DNA of 64,000 nucleotides, from sequence record OZ346187.1. One strand, 5' to 3'. Made by a program: the position numbers and the translations under genes. Shown here in pieces: positions 26,715-63,893 of the stretch (its first letter is position 1; each line of letters begins with the position of its first letter). A model generated the notes under the pieces. That model searched no databases and was not told the origin of the DNA. It saw nothing but the letters and a program-made list of their open reading frames with translations. This DNA comes from a phage.

Positions 26715-27176
26715 CTACTTAAATAGTAGTCCAAAATAGTGCAAAATTAACAGAAGTTGAACTACACCTAGTGCAACGGCGAGTATGTTAATCTTAGAAT
26801 CGAAAAACTTCTTAACTTTTACTCTAAAAGGTTCCTTAATGTCCTTTACGATCCTATTTATAGATGATTTCATATCCCTGATTACCATCCTAAACATTAG
26901 AGACGGATCTTCCTTCTCTGTAATAGAATCGAAAACATACTCTCTTCGGTCATAAGGACCTCCAGATCTGCGTATTAACCTCTCCACAGAGACCTCGTAC
27001 GACACACCTGTAACGTAATCATCTATGATAAGTAGTGACGGGTCTTTATCGTCCAAGGGTATTAAAGTTATCTTTCCAGATTTTGTTAAAATTTCTCCTT
27101 TTTCAAGCAAGGTGTACCAATGCTCTCTACCAAGATTGTTGAGGCACGTTTTTACATATTTAACAAACATCGTCAC
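26715..27176 (-). CDS. putative C-terminally membrane-anchored protein
   Basis: C-terminal hydrophobic helix ILAVALGVVQLLLILHYFGLLF. Confidence 0.45.
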   Translation of the reverse strand: MTMFVKYVKTCLNNLGREHWYTLLEKGEILTKSGKITLIPLDDKDPSLLIIDDYVTGVSYEVSVERLIRRSGGPYDRREYVFDSITEKEDPSLMFRMVIRDMKSSINRIVKDIKEPFRVKVKKFFDSKINILAVALGVVQLLLILHYFGLLFK

Positions 27177-29308: not shown

Positions 29309-29593
29309 CTACCAGGTTACTGTCAAGTAGGCAACCGTATTATTTTTCTCTGGGGAGATGCCAACAACATCTACCTGCAGACCTCCTGCCCTTAAATCTC
29401 CAACAATGTGAGGGAAGTAATCTGAGAGATGCGAGGGTAGATTTATCGAAAATCCGCACCCCAGAAAGCCTGCTAACGCTTTATTTTGTATCTCCCCCAC
29501 AATCGCATCATAAATGGAGTTAAGCTCGTCAGGGAGCGTTACAGGACGTTTTAGCGCTAACTGGTGTAATTTGTCCTTAGCACTCATTTTCAT
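29309..29593 (-). CDS. hypothetical protein
   Basis: ORF-track 29309-29623; ATG at 29593 overlaps the stop of the upstream methyltransferase gene. Confidence 0.45.
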   Translation of the reverse strand: MKMSAKDKLHQLALKRPVTLPDELNSIYDAIVGEIQNKALAGFLGCGFSINLPSHLSDYFPHIVGDLRAGGLQVDVVGISPEKNNTVAYLTVTW

Positions 29594-30123
29594 TTCAGGT
29601 CTACCTCTGGAGGTGCCAACCACATAAACGGCGGCAAGTCTAAACGGTTTTTCTTATCCCACACAAAATATGCATATGCTTGCCCGTCAGTTCTGCCGTT
29701 TGATTGAAATGATGGACGCTTAGATATTGTGATCACAGTAGTAGGTGCATTATCAAGCCACCATTCAAATCTGGCTTTGCTTTCCAGAAAATTAAGACGC
29801 AAAAGCATAATAACTACGTCAGCATCTTTCAACGCCTTGTCTACAAACTCACGAGCCAGGCTGTATGGTGGGTTGGTGATAATACAGTCAACATGGTTGT
29901 ATTCTGTATTCAGATAGTCAACACCTTCTTGTATTTCTCCCCATGCAGATCCTAACGGCATACGGGAGTAGAACACACCTGAGGCACTATTCCTGCAAGG
30001 CTCTAAGTAGGTCCAGTCTTCTGGGAACGGAATAAGGTCATACAGCCCTTCTGCACACCACTCCGGTGTCACATACTCATCGTAGGCGTTACGTTGTTCA
30101 TCAGGTTTTCGAGCACAAGTCAT
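29590..30123 (-). CDS. DNA N6-adenine (or N4-cytosine) methyltransferase, small phage Dam-like
   Basis: Catalytic motif IITNPPYS (NPPY) with conserved acidic residue upstream. Confidence 0.65.
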   Translation of the reverse strand: MTCARKPDEQRNAYDEYVTPEWCAEGLYDLIPFPEDWTYLEPCRNSASGVFYSRMPLGSAWGEIQEGVDYLNTEYNHVDCIITNPPYSLAREFVDKALKDADVVIMLLRLNFLESKARFEWWLDNAPTTVITISKRPSFQSNGRTDGQAYAYFVWDKKNRLDLPPFMWLAPPEVDLK

Positions 30124-30140: not shown

Positions 30141-30164
30141 AAAAGCCCTCCGAAGAGGGCTTTA
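30141..30164 (-). terminator. rho-independent terminator GCCCTC-CGAA-GAGGGC flanked by A/T runs
   Basis: Perfect 6-bp GC stem + tetraloop between ClpP-like gene and methyltransferase. Confidence 0.6.
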
Positions 30165-30174
30165 GAATTAATGT

Positions 30175-31224
30175 TTAAGCTTCTTCGACAATTCCTGCAC
30201 CCAGGATTTTTTCATTGAGCTCTTTTGCTGTTTTAATAATATTGTCCACCAGACGCTTGCGAGTCTTATCTTTTACCTTAACCTCTTCACCGCCGTTTAG
30301 GGTTGTCTTCAATTGGGACAAAATGTCTTGAAGTTCAACGACAGAGAATCGCTGCAGATCTTCTGAGGTAATCTCACCTAAGGCAATCTTAACGGTCTCA
30401 CCACTTTCCATCTGCAGGTTCAGGAACACAGTGTGAACATCACCTTTCGAACCACCAGCTTTTGCAGATTCAACAGCATGAACTAACTCATCTAAAGAGG
30501 TACACTGGTGAATCTCCGGGAGACCTGCTTCACCTAACACACCTTCTTCATCACCTTTTGCCAGAAGCTTTTTCGGTTTTTGTCCGTTCTGGATGCGTTG
30601 TATGTTACCTTCATCCAGAATGATAGCTCCAGTTCGAGCTGCCAGCTCCTCTCCGTCCAACCACACTTCACCACCAGCTGTGATGGATGCGATCTCATCT
30701 TCTGTCAGCACCCAACCGTAGTATTTTTCGATCAGGCGTTCGAAACGCTTTTTCCAGTAGCTGACCTGAGTATTCATGTTCACACCGTTACCATAAGTGC
30801 CACCTTGATAGTAGTGGAACATAAATTCTGTGTCCGGAGCCACAGTACGTTCTTTGCAACCCAGCCATAAGATTGTTCCCGCAGAGCAGCACATCCCTTC
30901 CGCATGTGCAACAACGCTTGCCTGAGACTCGCGGAATGCCTGCAGATAAGCCATCGCAATGTGCACGCAACCACCAGGGCTGTTAATGATCACTCGAATG
31001 CTTTCTTCAGGCTGAGCCATACGGATCGTCTGCAGGCGAGACATATGATCCTGCAGGTCTTCCAAATCGTCGATATAAAGAACGTGGTCAACAACAGGTG
31101 TTGGGTAGCTGTATGTCTCCATAATACCACCCGGCATACCGAACATTTTATTACTCATAGGTTCGAAACCGTTCTGTTTTTCTTTCATGCCGTGTACCAT
31201 GGTGCTGCGAGGTGTTAAATTCAT
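30175..31224 (-). CDS. ClpP-family serine peptidase-like protein with C-terminal extension
   Basis: INSPGG and GMCCSAG (active-site Ser context) resemble the ClpP/S14 fold. Confidence 0.6.
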   Translation of the reverse strand: MNLTPRSTMVHGMKEKQNGFEPMSNKMFGMPGGIMETYSYPTPVVDHVLYIDDLEDLQDHMSRLQTIRMAQPEESIRVIINSPGGCVHIAMAYLQAFRESQASVVAHAEGMCCSAGTILWLGCKERTVAPDTEFMFHYYQGGTYGNGVNMNTQVSYWKKRFERLIEKYYGWVLTEDEIASITAGGEVWLDGEELAARTGAIILDEGNIQRIQNGQKPKKLLAKGDEEGVLGEAGLPEIHQCTSLDELVHAVESAKAGGSKGDVHTVFLNLQMESGETVKIALGEITSEDLQRFSVVELQDILSQLKTTLNGGEEVKVKDKTRKRLVDNIIKTAKELNEKILGAGIVEEA

Positions 31225-31284: not shown

Positions 31285-31596
31285 TTATTTAGCAATCACT
31301 AGTGAATACTTACGATTGTCAGAAGCATCACAGCTCAATGATTGCCAGTCTACCACATACCACGTATCATTGTCAACAATTACTTTATCGCCTGTTCTGT
31401 AGCAGGTACTGCTTTCAATAATCCGAGACTCGATAAAGAATCTGTGTCGGCGCTCACGTAGCAACGCTAAGTTGATTATATTACCACCGCTGTCCTTGAT
31501 CCACACATTCTTGGATCCTTTATTTGCCAAAATTGTCTCGCCGTTGTAGACAAACAGGCAGTATATTTTATTCAGTTTCTCTTGTATTGTAGCCAT
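31285..31596 (-). CDS. hypothetical protein
   Basis: ORF-track ORF. Confidence 0.45.
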   Translation of the reverse strand: MATIQEKLNKIYCLFVYNGETILANKGSKNVWIKDSGGNIINLALLRERRHRFFIESRIIESSTCYRTGDKVIVDNDTWYVVDWQSLSCDASDNRKYSLVIAK

Positions 31597-31624: not shown

Positions 31625-31653
31625 ATAATATCTAAAGCTTACCTATTTGTCAA
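31625..31653 (-). promoter_or_regulatory. sigma70-like promoter on minus strand (TTGACA-17-TATTAT)
   Basis: Reverse complement of 31625-31653 gives TTGACA ... TATTAT upstream of ORF 31596. Confidence 0.5.
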
Positions 31654-31697: not shown

Positions 31698-32486
31698 TTA
31701 CTCGGAAACAGGGGTCCAAATATGGTTTGCACGATCCTCAATAAGATTGAGTGCGATCTGACGACCCAACCCGGAACGAACGACATCGTCTGGACTATCA
31801 AAGCTGATCATTCCAACCTCAGGATCTGGATGACGAGTAAAGAAATCCGTCACCCATGCAAGGCCAGATTTACCAGGGATGTCACGTTGGCTATTATCAC
31901 CCATAATTACAAGGGTGGCCTGATCAGAGATCCTTGTGATAATTGACAACATTTCTTCAGGGTTAGTTTGCTGTGCCTCGTCAATCAGGACAAAGCATCG
32001 CTCATCGAAACTACGACCACGAATGCTTTCAACTTCACAAATCTCGATACGACTGTTCTGACCGTCTCCCAGCATTGCGGCAAAAGCACCTTTGCCAACA
32101 CGACGACAAATCGTGTCCATCATGCTTCGAAGATAGGGCCACAGTTTCTGCATTGCATTTCCGGGTTTAAATCCTGAAGTCTTTCCTGTCTGGACGTAAG
32201 GACGTGCAACAATGATCTTATCAATCTCGTTCTTACGCAGAAGATCACCTGCATATGCAGATGCCATAAATGTCTTACCGGATCCAAACACACCGTTTAC
32301 AATAATAATCTTACGTGACCCCAGATAATCAAGATACTTTTGCTGCTTCTTATTCATTGGTCGGAGAGCTGGAGCGGTGTGCTCTCTTTCGTCAGCAAAT
32401 TTCTCAGCAGCCTTACGCAGGCGATCAGATTTGCGAGCCTCTCTAGCTTCATCACGCATGCGTTTTGTTTCTTTAGCTCGACCCAT
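31698..32486 (-). CDS. phoH: PhoH-like ATPase
   Basis: Walker A GVFGSGKTF and PhoH-like downstream motifs. Confidence 0.8.
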   Translation of the reverse strand: MGRAKETKRMRDEAREARKSDRLRKAAEKFADEREHTAPALRPMNKKQQKYLDYLGSRKIIIVNGVFGSGKTFMASAYAGDLLRKNEIDKIIVARPYVQTGKTSGFKPGNAMQKLWPYLRSMMDTICRRVGKGAFAAMLGDGQNSRIEICEVESIRGRSFDERCFVLIDEAQQTNPEEMLSIITRISDQATLVIMGDNSQRDIPGKSGLAWVTDFFTRHPDPEVGMISFDSPDDVVRSGLGRQIALNLIEDRANHIWTPVSE

Positions 32487-33048: not shown

Positions 33049-33522
33049 TTAGTCAACCTGAACCCAACCACCTGCTGCCTTTTTAAACATTCTTTGGTTA
33101 TCACTACCTCTGAAGGGTTTTTTGGTTGGGTTATCTTTTTCGTACTTACCATCCATAATGTAATCGACACTATCTTTAATGTAATCGGGAACCTCTTCAA
33201 ACAAATACCCTGTGTACACCCAGATAGTTTTTGTGTTGCCGAAGTGTTCACGGATAGCGCTAATGATCGAGTACATACCCTCAATATTGTAAGGCGCTAA
33301 AGGTTCGCCACCGCATAATGTAACGCCAGTAATGTGTTTCGGCTCTATAGAGTGAAGTATACTCTCAATAGTGTCATTTGTTAACGGTTCCCCTTTAGCT
33401 GGTGACCAAACACTTTTGTTTTGGCAACCGACGCAGTGATGTGGGCAACCAGAACAGAACACCGTTGTCCTAATGCCTGGGCCGTCAACCATGCTACACT
33501 CTATAATATTAACAACATTCAT
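33049..33522 (-). CDS. nrdG: anaerobic ribonucleotide reductase activating protein (radical SAM)
   Basis: CSGCPHHCVGC radical-SAM cysteine cluster; adjacent to nrdD. Confidence 0.8.
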   Translation of the reverse strand: MNVVNIIECSMVDGPGIRTTVFCSGCPHHCVGCQNKSVWSPAKGEPLTNDTIESILHSIEPKHITGVTLCGGEPLAPYNIEGMYSIISAIREHFGNTKTIWVYTGYLFEEVPDYIKDSVDYIMDGKYEKDNPTKKPFRGSDNQRMFKKAAGGWVQVD

Positions 33523-34086: not shown

Positions 34087-35349
34087 TCAGCAACTACAAC
34101 TTCCATAGTGCTTAACTCGCTCGATAACTTCCGCTTGCTTACCTTTATTGTAAGGACGGGAGTTAGGACTGGAAAGGTATCCAGACACACGTCGAATTAC
34201 ACTGATCGTTCCCTCTTCATGGTTTCCACACTCTGGGCATACAAAGCCTTTAGCTGTTGCACTGAACTCACCAGAGAAACCACACTTGAGACATTTATCC
34301 ACAGGTTGGTTAATACCAAAATACATAATATGTTTATACCCGAAGTCAACAAGAGCCTCTAAAGCATCCAGGTTGTTTTTCAGGTTAGGTGTCTCTACGT
34401 ATCCAATGTTGCCACCAGAGGAGATCATAGCAAAACCTTCCTCATACTCCCACTTATCAAAAGGAGAGCTATTTATCCACACTGGCTGATGGAAACTGTT
34501 GGTGAGATATTCATGCTCGTGCTTTAACACTTCTGGATATTCACGATCCAGACAGGTTGCAGCTTTATAGCATAGACTCTCAGAAGGAGTGCCGTACAAG
34601 CTAAATGCTAGTCTACTTTCCTTCTTGTATCGCTCACAAGCATCTCTCATGTGCTGAAGGATTCCAAGAGCTAAAGCCTTGTCACCTTCTCTGCCCAAAA
34701 TCTGACAGGTTTCATACACACCAATATACCCAATACTGATGGAAGCGTACCCGTCATAGAAGAGTTTATCAATACTTTCTTCGGGATCCAGGCGAGCAAG
34801 AGCGCCTTCACACCACATGATGGGGTTCTGCCCTGCCTTTGTTCCTTTTAGACGGTTAACCCTTACAAGGTGAGCCTCGTATGCAAGATCCAAGTATTCG
34901 TCAAGAACTGCAAAGAAATCAACACATTCCGTCTTAGCTTTTGCCGCAATCATTGGCAGGTTAAGGCTAACAACACCCAAGTTGAATCTGCCGAGGTATT
35001 TCTCCTCACCTGTTTCCAAGTCATTGTATTTGCTAAGAAAACTCCGGCAACCCATACTCGTTACTTTGCCATCTGTCGAGCCTGTCACTTTACGATTTAG
35101 TGGAACAGAAACAAAGTCAGGATAAATCCGCTCTGCAGAGCATTCCAGAGCTAATCGTTTCAAATCATAGTTAGGATCTCCGGGGTTCATGTTGACACCC
35201 TCTTCTAGGAAGAACAGCACTTTAGGGAACACAGGTGTGATACGTTCTTCACCAAGACCCATTTTGTGGACTTTCAAGTAATTTTTGGTAATCATTCTAC
35301 CAAAGACCGAGGTATCCAGTCCTAAACTTAATGTGATGAATGGAGTCTG
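34087..35349 (-). CDS. nrdD: anaerobic ribonucleotide reductase NrdD, exon 2
   Basis: Glycyl-radical motif RRVSGYL; strong similarity to the T4 NrdD C-terminal half; exon begins QTPFITLSLG upstream of ORF-track start 35295. Confidence 0.85.
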   Translation of the reverse strand, partial: QTPFITLSLGLDTSVFGRMITKNYLKVHKMGLGEERITPVFPKVLFFLEEGVNMNPGDPNYDLKRLALECSAERIYPDFVSVPLNRKVTGSTDGKVTSMGCRSFLSKYNDLETGEEKYLGRFNLGVVSLNLPMIAAKAKTECVDFFAVLDEYLDLAYEAHLVRVNRLKGTKAGQNPIMWCEGALARLDPEESIDKLFYDGYASISIGYIGVYETCQILGREGDKALALGILQHMRDACERYKKESRLAFSLYGTPSESLCYKAATCLDREYPEVLKHEHEYLTNSFHQPVWINSSPFDKWEYEEGFAMISSGGNIGYVETPNLKNNLDALEALVDFGYKHIMYFGINQPVDKCLKCGFSGEFSATAKGFVCPECGNHEEGTISVIRRVSGYLSSPNSRPYNKGKQAEVIERVKHYGSCSC

Positions 35350-36146
35350 CTGTCTCCTCCCTGTGTTTCCACAGGGCCAGACTATCTATTACTCTACTTC
35401 AATAAGATAATAACCCTTTATTGTGAGATGCTTACCTTCGGCATTTCCTTCGATAGCCCTGTGAACGTTACCTACGTTCAAATTTAAGGCTTTTGCACAG
35501 GCGTAGAGTGAAGGATATTCACCCACCAAGATTTTCCCTTTGTATGCCTGCACTTTCCTATAGCACTTACCTGGACAAAGTCCTGTTCGGAAAGCATGTC
35601 TCTTATTATCTTCCGGCAAAACCCACTCTAGGTTAGACGGATGATCATTCAATGTATTGCCATCTTTATGATTCACTTCCCAGTTTTCAGGGTCTTCTGG
35701 GACATCTGGCAAACAATACAAGGCAACAACCCTTGAGGTTTGGATTCGAATCTTTTTACCTTTGTGGTTGAAAGAGTACATATAACGGCGTTTAACATGC
35801 TTATTACCTTTTCCATAACCTCCCCACAATATTGGGTGCAGCATTCCACGTTTTCCGTATACGTTTCCAACTTCATCAATCACATAGTTTGATTCTTCAC
35901 CATTAAGAATGATCTTTTTCATAGAGCCTCTCCATTTCGAAGTTAGTATTTCAACTAACCCCTACACTACTTGGTTCAGAAATGTTTGTCAAGCATCTCT
36001 GCCTTTCGTTAGTCGTTACAACCGTTCCAACTCCTGTAAGAACTAGTCACGGGATTGGCATAGCTTTCGCCTTAGCGTTCCCCGTTAGCCGGATTTACCG
36101 ACCCCTCTTATGAGGTTAGGAGAGTTTTACAACGGCCAGTTTGTTA
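35350..36146 (-). mobile_element. group I intron in nrdD carrying an HNH homing-endonuclease ORF
   Basis: 5' exon ends GGU, intron starts UAA; ACGGGGAAC and CAAUCCCGUG elements as in the T4 td/nrdD introns; S-like UAGAUAGUCUGG at the ORF stop; intron ends in G before CAG. Confidence 0.8.
35389..35922 (-). CDS. HNH homing endonuclease (intron-encoded)
   Basis: EVNHKDGNTLNDHPSNLEWV...NKRHA HNH motif; lies entirely inside the nrdD intron. Confidence 0.75.
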   Translation of the reverse strand: MKKIILNGEESNYVIDEVGNVYGKRGMLHPILWGGYGKGNKHVKRRYMYSFNHKGKKIRIQTSRVVALYCLPDVPEDPENWEVNHKDGNTLNDHPSNLEWVLPEDNKRHAFRTGLCPGKCYRKVQAYKGKILVGEYPSLYACAKALNLNVGNVHRAIEGNAEGKHLTIKGYYLIEVE

Positions 36147-37007
36147 ACCGTTGACAGAAGTTAACGTATTGATTTGATAGAGCAAAGTCTGCATGCTGTC
36201 AAATACGTCTTTATCTGTCATTTGCATTGCAACAGTCTCAGCATCTGGCAACCAATGTTCCTGGCAAAATTTAAGGTTCTTCTCATAAGTCGCCTCAGCA
36301 TACTGTGCCAAATAATGGTCAATATGGCTCATAGTCTGACCCCCATATTGAGCACTAGCTACTGCACTAGAGATTTGGCTAAGGATTGTTGTTGCAACCC
36401 CTATTGACTTCGGCTTACTGACATGGGCGTTACCAATGTTGAATCCGTTTTCCAACATATCTGGATAATTTACCAAACAACAGTTTGTTAACGGACTGAT
36501 CAAGTAGTCAAGATCATGCACATGGATGAAGCCTTTATTGTGCTCTTCTGAGACACGGTCTGGCAGGATCTGTGTTGATGCAAGGTGTTTGCTAAGGATG
36601 CCTGCAAGCAGGTCACGATGAGTGTGTACATGATTGGTAGGCTTATTTGCGTTTTCTTTTGTAAATTCATCACAAGTTCGATCCAAGAAGCCACTAATAT
36701 CTGCAAGCAGTTTTCCACCTGCCTCTCTGTTATTATCTCTTGTCTGTCTATACTGGATGTATTCTCTGGCTGCACATTTTAAACCCATATCCATAAGAGC
36801 ATCTTCAACAAGGATATGGATATTTTTTACAGAGATCGTGCACTGGTCGGTTGGTAGATTGTTAGCAACAACTTCATTAACCGCACAAGCGATCCGGTAA
36901 GCTTCTTCTTCAGTATGTCCAGACTCAAGTAAGGCGGACTCTGCCGCCTTGATCACCTTAATTCCGTTATAGACCTCTTCTCTACCGTCCCGTTTTACAA
37001 CTTTCAC
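36147..37007 (-). CDS. nrdD: anaerobic ribonucleotide reductase NrdD, exon 1
   Basis: GFIHVHDLDY, TNCCLVNYPDMLENGF, KSIGVATTILSQ match T4 NrdD; ends ...TLTSVNG at the splice site. Confidence 0.85.
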
Positions 37008-37285: not shown

Positions 37286-38374
37286 TTAAAACTCCCAAAT
37301 TTCTTCTTCAGCGTCGTTAACAGTTGTGTTGACGCGGTAGTCAGTGTTCGACATTTCTTGGTTCGCCGTCTGTTGCAATGAAGGTTTCATCCACACCTGC
37401 ATAAACGGTAGCGGGTCCTTTGTTGGCGGCACAAAGTCTTTGTCGATGTCGTAGTAATCATAAATCGGTGAGCAGTTATAGTCAACCCATTCTTTAAGCA
37501 ACGGTGAGTTAAGACCTATAATCGCTCTTCCTTCGCTGAAAATATAGTCACTCCAACCGTACTCTTTGGTTCGCACTTCATCAAGAATCTCTTTTAACTC
37601 CCCTTTTATCTCAAGGAAGCTTTTCTCCCATGCGGGATCATTAAGCAGGATATCAATGATGGCAAAATCACCTTTCGAATGTAGCATTTCGTCAAGCATG
37701 ATTTTTTGAACAAGCTGCGCCACCTGAACAAAGATACCCTGTTCAGCTACTGCGAAAGTGCATGCAAAACTTGCAATAAACTCAATACTTTCCAGAGCTA
37801 AAAGTGCAAAAAGCGCTCTAAGAATGCATTTCCGCACAACATCTTCTTCAACACTAGAAGGATCCAGTCGGTATTTTGCACCAATAACCTCAAGCTCTTG
37901 CATGTATTTGACAATAACGCCGGATCTGCTCAGAACGTTTTGGTTTTCCTGAATCTCTTCTATAATCTCACGGGCATTGGGGAGGCATTGTCTAACAATC
38001 TCTGAGTAAGTTAGTGCGTGAAGAACTTCAATCTCCGACTGTTTCATCAATAGAGTGAAAAGCTCACTATTAGTGATGAATGGTGAAAAGAGGCAGATGA
38101 TCGATCTTGCCGCAACGCTATCAGCCTCCCATTGCCACATCAAGGTCTGAACCATCACATCATAAGTTGACTTTGAGCATGTTACAAAATCTGAAATAGA
38201 TTGCGACAAATCCACTTCATCCTCTGCCCAGTCTTGTTCTTTTTGTTTTTTGTACAGTTCGAACAGTTGTGGATATTTTTTGTTGATAGAGTCGTACATA
38301 CCCATTTGCTGTCCCAGAAACAGCGGATAGTCACCAGTTTTATGAGCGGTGTTCTCAGCATTAAATACAGCCAT
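37286..38374 (-). CDS. nrdB: ribonucleotide reductase class Ia small subunit
   Basis: Ferritin-like di-iron pattern, C-terminal ...EEEIWEF; ORF-track start 38434 trimmed to ATG 38374 after nrdA stop and hairpin. Confidence 0.9.
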   Translation of the reverse strand: MAVFNAENTAHKTGDYPLFLGQQMGMYDSINKKYPQLFELYKKQKEQDWAEDEVDLSQSISDFVTCSKSTYDVMVQTLMWQWEADSVAARSIICLFSPFITNSELFTLLMKQSEIEVLHALTYSEIVRQCLPNAREIIEEIQENQNVLSRSGVIVKYMQELEVIGAKYRLDPSSVEEDVVRKCILRALFALLALESIEFIASFACTFAVAEQGIFVQVAQLVQKIMLDEMLHSKGDFAIIDILLNDPAWEKSFLEIKGELKEILDEVRTKEYGWSDYIFSEGRAIIGLNSPLLKEWVDYNCSPIYDYYDIDKDFVPPTKDPLPFMQVWMKPSLQQTANQEMSNTDYRVNTTVNDAEEEIWEF

Positions 38375-38391
38375 TATTCTACCTCTAAAAT

Positions 38392-38405
38392 GGGGCCGAA
38401 GCCCC
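38392..38405 (-). promoter_or_regulatory. intergenic hairpin GGGGC-CGAA-GCCCC between nrdA and nrdB
   Basis: Perfect 5-bp GC stem with tetraloop in the 38-nt nrdA-nrdB spacer. Confidence 0.45.
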
Positions 38406-38412
38406 TTTAAAA

Positions 38413-40728
38413 TTATAGTGCACAGCTTTCGCAATACGGATCTTCAACTGAACTATCTGCAATCAAAGGATAGTTCTTTCTGGTTTCATCTTCAGCCTGT
38501 TTCTTGGCATGAAGTTCCTCTGCCAAGGAGTCACCCGCACCAACCCTAGAGTTTAAATAATACCATGTCTTCATTCCGAATTTAGTGGCACGGATAAGGT
38601 ACCCTAGCTGCTCCTTCATTGAAATTTTACCATCTTTCAACTTGGTGTAGTCTATGTATAAATCCGCGCTGATTGCCTGACCTGTGAATTTTTGAATCAC
38701 AGCATACATATCGATCATGTCGTTAGTATCAACGTCCCAAGCCGAAGTGTAATACTCTTTCAACTCATCATAGTCAGGAACGATAAACAGCACCTGCCCT
38801 TGTGGCGACTTTTTAAAGATAATGTGCTCACGGACAGGATAAACCCCGTTAGTGGTGTTTGTTGCCAGCGAAGAGCTTTCATTAGGCATATATGCTTCAA
38901 GAACGCTATTACGTAGCCCACCATTTTCAACGATTTCTTTACGTAACCCTTCCCAATCCTGTTTAAGAGAAGGATCTTTCACCACGCTATCGACCTCTTT
39001 GTTATAGGTGTCGATTGGTAACCAACCTTCTGGATATTTTGTTTTATGCATCCACTCGCAGACACCACGCTCTTTTGCCAACCGTAAACTTGCCTTATGC
39101 AAGCTGTAGCTGTGAAGTTCTGCAAGATCGTGAACGAGCTGTTTACTTTCAGGAGACCCGTAAGTAACCTTGTGGCTGGCAATAAAATGTGCAACATTGG
39201 TAAGGCCAACCCCGATGGATCTGCGTTTTTTAACTGTGCTTTCCATATTTTCATACGGATATGTCATGATTTCCATAACATTGTCAATCATAAGCACCGT
39301 ATAGTATGCAACATCCTCATACTCCTCTGGAGTAACCCTCCCAGCTACAAGAGATGACAGGAAGCACAATGCAACCTCTCCATCATCAGCATCGTACTTG
39401 AAGATATTACGCATATCTGAATAGCCTTTTGTCGGGAGGGCTATTTCTGCACACAGGTTGCTTGAATAGATCACATCTTTAAAAGGTGTATGTCTATTCA
39501 TCTCATCTGTCCAGTATACGTACAGCCTTCCCACCTCAGTGCGCTGCGTGATCAGTTCAACAGCAAGATCTCTAGCTCGGATCCATGTTTTAGGAATACT
39601 GTCATCTTTAGCAATACGATCAACCTCTGCATCAAACTCCTCTATAGACATGGTGAAGATACCCTCATGCAGTTGAGGCGCGTGCTTATAAGAAACAAGC
39701 ATCCAATCTAAATTCTTAGCCACACGGTTGATAAACGACCTATTAATACCGATGGAGTAGTCCATGGTGTTGATTCTTTTTGAAGCAACAGTCATAGGGT
39801 TTCTCAAACGGATTAGCTCATCAATCTGCGGGTCCAGTGCAAGGAATGATACTGTTGCAGAACCACCACGTGATTGTTGTCTGTTCTCCTTAACCCCAGC
39901 ATCAATACCTCGATAATATGGAATCTTACCCATATGTTTAATAGTGTTACCACGAACACCATCGCCTGCAGATCTTGAGGATAAGTAGTAGCCGATACCT
40001 GCTTGGTTAACCGTCATTGTGTACGCAACTTCACGTGCCACACCAATAGATTTTGCTGTATCGTCAGCTTTTATTACACAACAAGATGCATACCCTGTCT
40101 TACCTGTGCGCAGCCCGTTTAAGTACGGTGTCGGGGCATTGATCTTTAAGTCGGACAGGTAAGTGTATAATTTTACAACATCGTTGATACGACGTTCTTT
40201 CGGCATATTCTTCATGACAGCCATTGCTATCCCCATAAACATCATCTGGGGAGATTCAAACAAGGTGTCTTTAAGAGTATCCTTGATCCCGTATTTGTCG
40301 CGAAACTGTTTAAGGACTGCATAGCCATAACCGAGATCTTTACTGTGATCAATAACAGTGCCTAAAGTGTTTAACTCGGTAAAGCTATAACCCATATCCT
40401 CCCAATACCCTTTCTCAACCATGTCGTTGTAAAATGATGGTAAGGAAGGGATCTTTGTAAACCCTCCAAAAGCCTCTTTATAAATCTGACCAATAAGAAC
40501 ACGACCAGCCATACGGGAATGTGCTTCGTCTTTACGGCTAACACAGGAGTCTATGATAGCTTGGTTAACTTCTTTGGTTGTACATCCATCATACAGTCGT
40601 TTGTATGCATCCAGTGCAATGTGTGACCAATTGCCGTTACCGTCGTCACCGAAAATAGCTGCCTTATTTAAACGTTCTGGATCGAATGCCACTTCACATC
40701 CGTTGCTTTTAATTACCTTGGTGATCAA
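38413..40728 (-). CDS. nrdA: ribonucleotide reductase class Ia large subunit
   Basis: ATP-cone N-terminus, active-site NLCAEIALPT, C-terminal Cys pair CESC. Confidence 0.92.
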   Translation of the reverse strand: MITKVIKSNGCEVAFDPERLNKAAIFGDDGNGNWSHIALDAYKRLYDGCTTKEVNQAIIDSCVSRKDEAHSRMAGRVLIGQIYKEAFGGFTKIPSLPSFYNDMVEKGYWEDMGYSFTELNTLGTVIDHSKDLGYGYAVLKQFRDKYGIKDTLKDTLFESPQMMFMGIAMAVMKNMPKERRINDVVKLYTYLSDLKINAPTPYLNGLRTGKTGYASCCVIKADDTAKSIGVAREVAYTMTVNQAGIGYYLSSRSAGDGVRGNTIKHMGKIPYYRGIDAGVKENRQQSRGGSATVSFLALDPQIDELIRLRNPMTVASKRINTMDYSIGINRSFINRVAKNLDWMLVSYKHAPQLHEGIFTMSIEEFDAEVDRIAKDDSIPKTWIRARDLAVELITQRTEVGRLYVYWTDEMNRHTPFKDVIYSSNLCAEIALPTKGYSDMRNIFKYDADDGEVALCFLSSLVAGRVTPEEYEDVAYYTVLMIDNVMEIMTYPYENMESTVKKRRSIGVGLTNVAHFIASHKVTYGSPESKQLVHDLAELHSYSLHKASLRLAKERGVCEWMHKTKYPEGWLPIDTYNKEVDSVVKDPSLKQDWEGLRKEIVENGGLRNSVLEAYMPNESSSLATNTTNGVYPVREHIIFKKSPQGQVLFIVPDYDELKEYYTSAWDVDTNDMIDMYAVIQKFTGQAISADLYIDYTKLKDGKISMKEQLGYLIRATKFGMKTWYYLNSRVGAGDSLAEELHAKKQAEDETRKNYPLIADSSVEDPYCESCAL

Positions 40729-62375: not shown

Positions 62376-62659
62376 GAGTTGCTACACTGTTTATTGTGTG
62401 CTTGTTATTATGTGGGTGTGCAACCAGCGTTGAGAGAGAATACAAGATTGACCCTCCTGATGTAGGAAGGTTGATTGTTAAACCCCCGGAAGGTGCCATG
62501 AAACCACCTGCTAAAGCTATGCCTTTGAAGAAAGGTGCGCCAGATGCAGTGAATTCTGGCATTATGAGGGATAATAATCTGTCTTGTAGCAATGATAGAG
62601 CTAAATTGATCATTTTGCAAGACTATATTAGAACACTTTTTCCAAAGGAGAGAGGTTAA
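62372..62659 (+). CDS. putative o-spanin (Rz1-like lipoprotein)
   Basis: Lipobox-type signal MRVATLFIVCLLLCGCAT; Pro-rich; 4-nt overlap with the i-spanin candidate. Confidence 0.5.
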   Translation: MRVATLFIVCLLLCGCATSVEREYKIDPPDVGRLIVKPPEGAMKPPAKAMPLKKGAPDAVNSGIMRDNNLSCSNDRAKLIILQDYIRTLFPKERG

Positions 62660-63084
62660 TGTCTAAGATTTACGGACCGTGTTCTGAAAAGCAGAAGATG
62701 ATCCTAGAAAACGATGCAGATATTTTGGTAATCGGCGGTGCCGCAGGGTCTGGCAAGTCGTTCCTCTTGCAATTGATGCCACTTAAAATTATTGATGACC
62801 CCCACAGCTCTGTGGTTATGTTCCGAAGAACAACCCCACAGTTGGAAGGTGAGGGTGGATTATGGCCTAAAGCAGTAGCTATTTATAGTGATCTGCCTGA
62901 AAACATTAAGCCAAAGTTTAGAGAGAAGGATCATAAGTTCATTTTTCCACGGTTTGATCCGAACACTGGCAAGTGGGATAGAAGCAAAAAGGGAGCTGTT
63001 GTAAAATACTGCCACATGGAGTATGTACAAGATAAGCTTAACCATCAGGGGCTTGAGTACACCATGGTTTGCTTCGATGAGGGT
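62659..63084 (+). CDS. terL: terminase large subunit, exon 1 (N-terminal ATPase; interrupted by intron)
   Basis: Walker A VIGGAAGSGKS; Walker B MVCFDEG immediately before the stop at the intron start. Confidence 0.7.
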
Positions 63085-63134
63085 TAATTTGTAGCTCTCG
63101 TAAAACCTCCCTAATTGCGGGGAAATCTTTATTA

Positions 63135-63163
63135 TTGACACCACCAACCTGTCATGGTAACAT
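63135..63163 (+). promoter_or_regulatory. promoter-like TTGACA-17-TAACAT inside the terL intron, upstream of the endonuclease ORF
   Basis: Consensus -35 and plausible -10; overlaps palindrome TGTCATGGTAACATGACA. Confidence 0.35.
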
Positions 63164-63302
63164 GACAGAGGCTTCGAAGAGAGATCGAAGGTATGGTAAC
63201 AGTGTGTTAATTTAGATAATCCGCAGCGAAGCATCCGAGAGGATGAACGTTCAACGACTAGTCGAAAGACGTAGAATCAAGCGATTCGAAACGGGAGGGT
63301 GA

Positions 63303-63893
63303 ATGTGTAATACTAAGAAATGTATGGATTGCCAAAGAGTTCTACCTATTGATGATTTCTTTTTATCATCTAAGAGCAAGGATGGATACTCAGGTACATG
63401 CAAGGAATGCTATATGTACTACAGGAAGGGTGGATCTCGTAAAAACAAAAATATGGTTAAGAGAGATGATGCAGCATTGTTTATTCAAGACTTGCTGAAG
63501 AAAGGTGAACTTTTTGAATGCAAATCTTGTCATGAAAGTATGCTCGCTGATAGTTTTTACACAAAACGTGACTATGGTAAAGTATATCTGGTTACGAACA
63601 GGTGTAAGATGTGTGAAAAGTTTTATCAGATTGAGAAGAAATTTAACATAACAAAAGATGAATACTATCGTCTACTCTCAGATCAAGATCATAAGTGTGC
63701 CATTTGTAGAATATCCCTTGATGAGTATAGGACGCAAGGGTATAGAGATTTCTTTTGTGTTGATCATGACCATAAAACTGGTGCTGTAAGAGGGTTGCTT
63801 TGTGATAAATGCAACAGAGCTTTAGGTTTCTTCCAAGAGGATGAGGAAACTATTCTTAGAGCGGCAGAGTATTTACACATTCATAAGATATAG
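63303..63893 (+). CDS. endonuclease VII-family (HNH-like) homing endonuclease, intron-encoded
   Basis: FCVDHDHKTGAVRGLLCDKCNRALG matches the endonuclease VII core; several CxxC pairs; inside the terL intron. Confidence 0.7.
   Translation: MCNTKKCMDCQRVLPIDDFFLSSKSKDGYSGTCKECYMYYRKGGSRKNKNMVKRDDAALFIQDLLKKGELFECKSCHESMLADSFYTKRDYGKVYLVTNRCKMCEKFYQIEKKFNITKDEYYRLLSDQDHKCAICRISLDEYRTQGYRDFFCVDHDHKTGAVRGLLCDKCNRALGFFQEDEETILRAAEYLHIHKI

Follow-up and report, generated by a model that had tools for sequence, protein, structure and literature searches.

A ClpP-like peptidase gene beside PhoH and outside the head module of a Vequintavirus genome

Cellular ClpP (MEROPS S14, PF00574, TIGR00493) and the head-maturation proteases of phages (NF045542; PHROG 1684, 94, 2976, 133) are the described systems closest to the subject of this study, a ClpP-like protease of 349 amino acids encoded on the minus strand at 30175..31224 of a phage DNA of 64,000 nucleotides (sequence record OZ346187.1; "the window" below denotes this whole stretch). 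ClpP in cells requires an ATPase for the degradation of folded proteins. The head-maturation proteases are the characterised families nearest in sequence; these phage enzymes have a ClpP fold and work without an ATPase, and some carry C-terminal extensions or capsid fusions. Lambda gpC/Nu3 places a helical C-terminal part after a ClpP-clan protease domain. A further set of mostly short proteins labelled 'ATP-dependent protease' (PHROG 1827) occurs in PAK_P-like, Otagovirus, Flaumdravirus, Barbavirus, T5-like and KVP40-like phages; these are non-structural by context, and their genes often lie just after PhoH.

The window protein shares with cellular ClpP the fold, the Ser and His motifs, the Gly-rich strand and the handle helix, and cellular ClpP was its best match both by structure and in the Protein Data Bank (PDB). 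It differs from ClpP in lacking the docking pocket and the gating loop and helix A, in the replacement of the catalytic Asp by Glu or Gln within its family, and in an extra C-terminus of ~135 residues. From the head-maturation families it is set apart by a score below cut-off, by a gene lying outside the head module of a phage that has an XkdF-type protease, and by not being reported in virions. ICP1 Gp211 and the PHROG 1827 proteins have a homologous protease domain (27-36% identity) with the invariant Ser and His alike, although most of the PHROG 1827 relatives have 180-245 residues and no C-terminal domain, and the extension of ICP1 Gp211 is similar in length but has no detectable likeness in sequence. 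Lambda gpC/Nu3 differs in that S49 peptidases use a Ser-Lys dyad, whereas the gene studied here has no nested start and does not lie in a head module.

We propose, with about an even chance of being right, that the protein is an active, ring-forming ClpP-fold peptidase of the cytoplasm in early or mid-infection that lacks canonical ClpX/ClpA docking and whose C-terminal domain, perhaps together with a neighbouring 103-residue protein, chooses its partner or substrate. It would be a catalytically competent serine peptidase (Ser114-His137, Glu186 standing where ClpP has Asp) from a phage-specific branch (PHROG 5410/1827) that appears to be neither cellular ClpP nor a ClpP-related head-maturation protease. 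Its gene and that of the 103-residue protein are predicted to share a host-type sigma-70 promoter, which lies directly after PhoH in the arm for nucleotide metabolism, and the enzyme would act in the cytoplasm of the infected cell and not within proheads. Because the ClpP head domain, the Gly-rich strand that guides substrates and the handle helix are kept, it probably assembles into ClpP-like rings; with the hydrophobic pockets and N-terminal loops gone, it most likely works without an unfoldase or with a non-canonical partner. In the unfoldase-free mode it could cleave peptides, unstructured proteins or specifically recruited proteins, presumably independently of an ATPase, with the lineage-specific C-terminal domain, and possibly the 103-residue protein, recognising partner or substrate.

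Fold, active site and docking surface

The open reading frame (ORF) has an ATG start with an AAGGA ribosome-binding site 6 nt 5' of it, and corresponds to rV5 gp122 and to APECc02 gp104 (YP_009593637.1), to which the protein is 100% identical. Residues 59-168 matched Pfam CLP_protease (E 2.3e-12; 47.6 bits against a cut-off of 20.2) over 112 of the 182 profile positions, and this broad domain model was the sole ClpP model passed. The match to phrog_5410 ('ATP-dependent protease', E 7.7e-155) ran over residues 24-345 and profile positions 4-322 of 323, and phrog_1827 was hit at E 1.3e-39. A sequence-only reading of this DNA had described ClpP-like serine peptidase motifs in the 349-residue protein, on which Pfam, PHROG, Foldseek and the Ser114 and His137 motifs agree, and had named S14 and S49 as the families for a profile search. 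S14 held at the level of the broad Pfam domain and S49 did not, the SppA domain model (TIGR00706) being hit at E 0.022 with 14 bits against a cut-off of 155, and the His at the ClpP position is conserved.

An AlphaFold model of the monomer was built from an 18-sequence family alignment (mean predicted local distance difference test score, pLDDT, 74.5). Foldseek matched it to solved ClpP structures with E ~1e-9 and target template-modelling (TM) scores of 0.66-0.73 over ~170 aligned columns, and the PDB sequence matches were ClpP without exception (E down to 7e-8). These matches and the secondary structure of the model place the ClpP-fold peptidase domain at residues ~43-213 (30586..31098, minus strand, as are all features of this gene). 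The domain has the ClpP/crotonase-type alpha/beta fold with its handle region, including in the model a Gly-rich strand QGG (140-142) and a handle helix (150-169), and the protein carries no ATPase domain.

The ClpP-type motifs read GMCCS114AGT and FMFH137YYQGG. Alignment to ClpP equates Ser114 (codon 30883..30885), the predicted nucleophile, with Ser97 of E. coli ClpP and His137 (30814..30816) with His122, while Glu186 (30667..30669) falls at the position of the triad Asp171, where 'GGE-VWL' stands against 'ERD-FWL' of Pseudomonas aeruginosa ClpP. Ser114 and His137 were invariant in 18 of 18 family members and in 8 of 8 distant relatives (from ICP1, PAK_P4, phiPsa267, Roth39, VBP32, D481 and an environmental contig). 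The Asp171-equivalent site was more variable, with Glu here, Asp or Glu among the distant relatives, and Gln in the remaining genera of Vequintavirinae. The ratio of nonsynonymous to synonymous substitution rates (dN/dS) was 0.017-0.042 in comparisons with rV5 and an IMG/VR relative, and 0.009-0.056 for the two halves of the gene taken singly; both halves are under strong purifying selection. Because Ser114 and His137 are invariant and dN/dS is ~0.02-0.04, the protein is, judged from its sequence, likely an active enzyme.

Residues 1-42 (31099..31224) were predicted to be disordered (pLDDT <50), with no helix ahead of the first strand (E46-51). Among the 18 family members this segment keeps a motif N-x-[FM]-G ... 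Y40-P41, in which Y40 and P41 are invariant and F28 and G29 nearly so. We also observed within residues ~25-42 a hydrophobic-Gly-hydrophobic motif (MFGM, FFGM, RFGY) that is loosely like the IGF/LGF loops of Clp ATPases, a likeness in three residues that is too short for testing.

Beyond the ClpP fold the protein extends for ~135 residues; the extra C-terminal part, put at ~150 residues in the sequence-only reading, is thus real and comprises a variable linker followed by a folded domain. The linker (residues ~214-262; 30439..30585) varies in length and sequence across the family alignment, has pLDDT values of 44-67, and in Vequintavirus holds a short helix (244-257 in the model). The lineage-specific C-terminal domain (residues ~263-343; 30196..30438) is modelled as a beta-hairpin and three helices, with F293, E297 and R322 invariant. 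A search with its profile against 1.84 billion representative proteins gave no clear occurrence beyond its own family. Homology to the extension of ICP1 Gp211 was considered and dropped, being not detectable by hhalign (E 0.33).

The disordered N-terminus sits where cellular ClpP has its axial loop and helix A, the elements that control the pore and touch the ATPase, and could not be aligned to E. coli ClpP; neither feature has a counterpart in the model, and the hidden Markov model (HMM) alignment to ClpP begins at strand 1. The docking pocket is also altered, with residues Y60, Y62, F82, I90, M92, F112 and L114 of E. coli ClpP corresponding to R77, I79, E99, H107, E109, T127 and A129 here, in a register upheld by the catalytic residues and by alignment to Coxiella ClpP. 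Five of these (R77, E99, H107, E109, T127) are invariant in the family, placing polar or charged residues where ClpP has the hydrophobic pocket for the IGF/LGF loop. The clpP equivalog model TIGR00493 scored 33.2 bits against a cut-off of 308.6, and PRK00277 scored 38.1 against 249. No Clp-type unfoldase was seen in the annotation of the phage or among the phage ATPases tested, which were DnaB-like, kinase-like or without a Pfam match, and none of which was of Clp or Lon type. Because the docking features are missing, the clpP score is low and no unfoldase was seen, the 'ATP-dependent' label appears to have been inherited from ClpP rather than shown. These sequence comparisons make it unlikely that the protein serves host ClpX/ClpA as a true ClpP subunit.

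A broader form of this idea is that the protein is a genuine ClpP substitute, assembling as a tetradecamer, on its own or together with host ClpP subunits, and redirecting ATP-dependent degradation via host ClpX/ClpA, which we also consider unlikely. The invariant polar or charged residues that now occupy the pocket, the absent axial loop and helix A, the 33 bits against 308.6 of the equivalog model, and a C-terminal domain without ClpP counterpart all count against it, while it would suit the best structural and PDB sequence match, the kept handle helix and Gly-rich strand, and the need of cellular ClpP for an ATPase to degrade folded proteins in a phage where no Clp-type unfoldase was seen. 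The database label 'ATP-dependent Clp protease subunit' may therefore mislead, as the canonical ClpX/ClpA docking is not conserved. This likely mislabelling is one of three points that give the gene its interest, the others being a conserved linkage to PhoH and a replacement of the ClpP-like by an HslV-like gene.

PhoH linkage and an HslV-like peptidase in the same slot

The gene had been described as lying next to PhoH and the ribonucleotide reductase (RNR) genes, and the neighbourhood is as claimed. All on the minus strand are a PhoH-like P-loop ATPase of 262 residues (31698..32486; Pfam PhoH, E 3.6e-47; PDB 3b85, E 2.8e-27), NrdG (33049..33522), a split NrdD (34087..37007) and NrdB (37286..38434). 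Upstream of the protease gene is the 103-residue ORF (31285..31596, minus strand; rV5 gp121, PHROG 5456), of unknown function and without a match in Pfam or NCBIfam, which adjoins the protease gene throughout Vequintavirinae. A scan located a sigma-70-type promoter (TTGACA-17-TATTAT, 11/12 matches; 31625..31653, minus strand) between PhoH and this ORF, and the same promoter is annotated in rV5 (P121) and in phage Gotham. At the other end, 12 nt past the protease stop codon, starts a terminator-like hairpin, AAAGCCCUC-UUCG-GAGGGCUUU followed by U (30141..30163, minus strand), with a fold of -14.7 kcal/mol and a z-score of -2.1; the Gotham record has an ARNold terminator at the same place. These signals suggest that the 103-residue ORF and the protease gene are a two-gene unit that unmodified host RNA polymerase could read, and such a unit would be expressed early or in the middle phase of infection. 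In the related phage PAK_P3, transcription of regions with genes of nucleic-acid metabolism falls in the middle phase (PMC4933390).

The order PhoH, zero to four small ORFs, ClpP-like gene was observed in all Vequintavirinae loci retrieved except one (L019). PhoH also precedes the ClpP-like gene in ICP1 (L005:5214-7912) and in two large environmental contigs, and the two genes overlap by 8 nt in Otagovirus phiPsa267 (L087:2648-4013) and Flaumdravirus KIL3b (L091:2169-3513). The Barbavirus locus (L093:2180-3702) has PhoH upstream and a Dam-type methylase downstream, as in the window, where the downstream neighbour is an N6-adenine DNA methyltransferase-like protein of 177 residues (29590..30123, minus strand; PHROG 799, E 8e-67). 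An adjacent PhoH was not found in the PAK_P4, T5-like, KVP40-like or N4-like relatives, nor within 10 kb in ~60 environmental loci encoding ClpP-like proteins of 185-200 residues. A protein of 253 residues upstream of the protease in T5-like Roth39 was considered as a candidate PhoH and found not to be one. A broad multi-family alignment was too divergent as a query and retrieved no further loci. Several of the PhoH-linked phage groups are distantly related via structural genes (PMC4309531), so that part of the synteny may be inherited.

In the phi92-like phage EmilieFrey (MZ501063) the flanks of the slot are orthologous to those of the window (N6-methyltransferase 47% identical, E 7e-45; PhoH, E 7e-9), and between PhoH and the methyltransferase lies a gene for an HslV/proteasome-like peptidase of 217 residues (bas61_0205; L099:9132-9785, minus strand). 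This protein scored above the cut-off of Pfam Proteasome and matched HslV in the PDB (E 5e-8); its N-terminal Thr is kept without exception in 19 relatives. An HslV-like gene was also noted at L100:5001-5867, and an environmental contig carries PhoH, two small ORFs and an HslV-like gene. Annotation-level mentions of the HslV-like gene were found in the literature, and nothing further (PMC12210895). The HslV-like peptidase occupies the same slot as the ClpP-like one and is also a chambered-protease core with a C-terminal tail, but its fold and chemistry are unrelated (an Ntn hydrolase with an N-terminal Thr). We make no claim that the two C-terminal tails are homologous, the motif likeness between them being marginal (E 0.004-0.006, probability 6-9%), and the longer HslV-like tails showed no similarity to the ClpP-like C-terminus.

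The two genes are thus a non-orthologous swap of chambered-peptidase folds between sister subfamilies. That two unrelated chambered-peptidase folds share one slot speaks for a cytoplasmic peptidase function of this slot that does not depend on the head genes, and the replacement in a sister subfamily amounts to a natural experiment for such a function. The shared slot also leaves open a functional link with PhoH.

Such a link could take the form of a phage-specific machine in which the ClpP-like protein is the proteolytic half and the neighbouring PhoH-like ATPase the other, possibly acting on nucleic-acid-bound proteins or ribonucleoprotein complexes. The upstream PhoH in Vequintavirinae, ICP1, Otagovirus, Flaumdravirus, Barbavirus and two environmental contigs, with the 8-nt overlap in two genera, is consistent with this, as are the loss of the canonical ATPase docking site from the protease and the succession in phi92-like phages of PhoH and an HslV-like peptidase, a core that normally needs an ATPase ring. 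We nevertheless regard the machine as improbable: PhoH is a RecA/SF1-like P-loop ATPase and not an AAA+ unfoldase, complexes of PhoH with a protease are not known, the protease unit in the window is set off from PhoH by a promoter, the distant kinship of the phage groups may account for part of the synteny, and PAK_P4, T5-like, KVP40-like and N4-like phages have the protease without an adjacent PhoH. Correspondingly doubtful is the generalisation that in virulent phages a PhoH-like ATPase and the chambered peptidase encoded beside it (of ClpP-like type in rV5-, ICP1-, Otagovirus- and Barbavirus-type phages, of HslV-like type in phi92-type phages) form an unrecognised degradation module that works around the Clp and Hsl unfoldases of the host. 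If true, it would give phoH, a widely used but functionally obscure phage marker, a concrete biochemical role.

Returning to the cytoplasmic peptidase that we favour, a role in host proteostasis or anti-defence, as the sequence-only reading offered, is a plausible guess. Run on the protease and the 103-residue protein, PADLOC reported no defence system. Substrates, if found among host proteins, defence proteins or phage regulators, would add a new layer of host takeover.

The head module and its own protease

The sequence-only reading had doubted a prohead role and held that structural genes just outside the stretch could overturn this doubt. The head and packaging module lies ~31 kb from the protease gene on the opposite strand, where the first terminase piece (62659..63087) was observed, and runs past the end of the window. 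Its content was read in the closest relatives, APECc02 and HdK5, in which the order is terminase, portal, a protein of 139 residues, a protein of 325 residues, decoration protein, and a lambda-E-type major capsid protein. The 139-residue protein between the portal and capsid genes is a Peptidase_S78_2/XkdF protease by Pfam (E 8.7e-18 in these relatives). Homologues of this XkdF-type protease have been found in W70 and CB7 virions by mass spectrometry, and the ClpP-like protein appears neither in the W70 virion table, nor in the CB7 virion proteome, nor in the text on rV5 virions (PMC11370258, PMC7344957, PMC3606486). The doubt therefore stands, and the head module beyond the window end, with a protease of its own, does not make the ClpP-like gene a prohead protease.

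The comparison with other phages gave the same picture. EmilieFrey has a matching head-module architecture, with a capsid protein 42% identical, and no ClpP-like gene anywhere in its genome. The relatives in T5-like and KVP40-like phages are placed among metabolic or lysis genes, outside the head modules of phages that possess head proteases of their own. Family members lay among early or middle metabolic genes in 11 of 11 lineages inspected, and virulent phages of several families carry this ClpP-fold peptidase outside head modules. It is well supported that the ClpP-like protein is not the head-module protease.

The protein could still be a second morphogenetic protease, cleaving scaffold, internal or virion proteins, with its helical C-terminus as a capsid-targeting or scaffold-like module of the kind seen in lambda C/Nu3 or at the C-terminus of the HK97 protease. 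The succession of domain, linker and helical C-terminus does resemble protease-scaffold fusions, and the best-scoring characterised families were of the head-maturation type, namely phrog_1684 (77 bits, E 3.9e-21) and NF045542 (Clp_rel_HeadMat; E 2e-16); the protease family may have descended from ClpP-related head-maturation proteases. The NF045542 score of 60.3 bits remains under its cut-off of 120, however, as does that of the protease-capsid fusion model NF045540 (51 against 475), and the gene shows no visible internal start from which a nested scaffold protein could be made. The position of the gene, on the strand opposite to the head module, 31 kb from it and behind a sigma-70 promoter, is also hard to fit with such a role, as are a head module that already has its own protease, the absence of the protein from the lists of virion proteins, the HslV-like peptidase in the slot of phi92-like phages that have the same head gene set without a ClpP-like gene, and the T5-like and KVP40-like relatives outside head modules in phages with head proteases of their own. 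We judge a morphogenetic role to be quite improbable.

Several points nonetheless weigh against a cytoplasmic early or mid-infection peptidase. The characterised families that come nearest by HMM score are the ClpP-related head-maturation proteases. Because prohead proteases often degrade themselves and exit the capsid, the absence of the protein from virion proteomes is weak evidence. A homologue of rV5 gp133, 153 residues long, is encoded 3 kb away in the same arm (26715..27176, minus strand) and is classed as 'virion structural protein' (PHROG 7821); rV5 gp133 itself was among the predominant virion proteins by mass spectrometry, although it comes from the early/middle arm, so that position alone cannot exclude a structural role for the protease. 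Other genera of Vequintavirinae have Gln as the third triad residue, the pocket analysis is based on an alignment and a monomer model and not on a complex, and the timing was inferred solely from promoter type and gene position. We found no experiment on any family member, and the literature searches turned up no work on the function of rV5 gp122, of ICP1 Gp211 or of relatives of either.

A reading of the protein as catalytically dead, with its ClpP fold serving as a decoy, inhibitor or scaffold that, for instance, poisons host ClpP rings, is very improbable, since Ser114, His137 and the oxyanion and Gly-rich motifs are invariant over deep divergence, which is unexpected for a non-enzyme, even with the canonical Asp replaced by Glu here and by Gln in sister genera and with an N-terminal motif that loosely recalls ClpP-binding IGF loops.

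Source genome, annotation and further observations

Over the 4 kb round the protease gene the window agrees with Escherichia phage APECc02 at 100% identity, and many other Vequintavirus (rV5-like) genomes match this region at 98-99.5%. In its right-hand part the window resembles other members of the genus more closely (97.7% to HdK5), and it is therefore from a Vequintavirus genome that is not APECc02 throughout. The novelty implied by the sequence-only reading was overstated, because the gene has been annotated as ClpP-like since the rV5 genome paper: ORF122 is named 'ClpP ATP-dependent protease subunit' both in the rV5 record and in the gene table of that 2013 paper, and ~120 GenBank records hold the gene under similar names. 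As a catalogue entry the gene is already known, and it is a member of an uncharacterised phage family. Some 18-20 GenBank records labelled 'Campylobacter phage' (MG0656xx) were ~95% identical to E. coli Vequintavirus across the protease region, which suggests that they are mislabelled or contaminating coliphages.

In the RefSeq entry of APECc02 the XkdF-type head protease (L002:35350-35769) is called a 'DNA methyltransferase', and its match in phrog_1530, a mixed PHROG, is to the C-terminal portion; the 103-residue ORF is named 'PhoH-like protein' in the same entry. Both names look wrong. The 325-residue protein encoded after the XkdF-type protease (L002:35769-36746; homologues of APECc02 gp211) is called 'scaffold' in BASEL records, yet it accounted for 913 spectra in W70 virions, and because of this abundance it may stay in the mature capsid.

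Two genes of the window were observed to be interrupted. The nrdD gene is cut into ORFs of 287 and 402 residues by an insertion with an ORF of 177 residues (35389..35922) that looks like a homing endonuclease, and the RefSeq coordinates of APECc02 imply an uninterrupted nrdD there, with an offset of ~857 nt. The gene for the terminase large subunit is also split (62659..63893, plus strand), with an N-terminal piece of 142 residues followed by an endonuclease VII-like ORF of 196 residues, and the window ends within this split gene.

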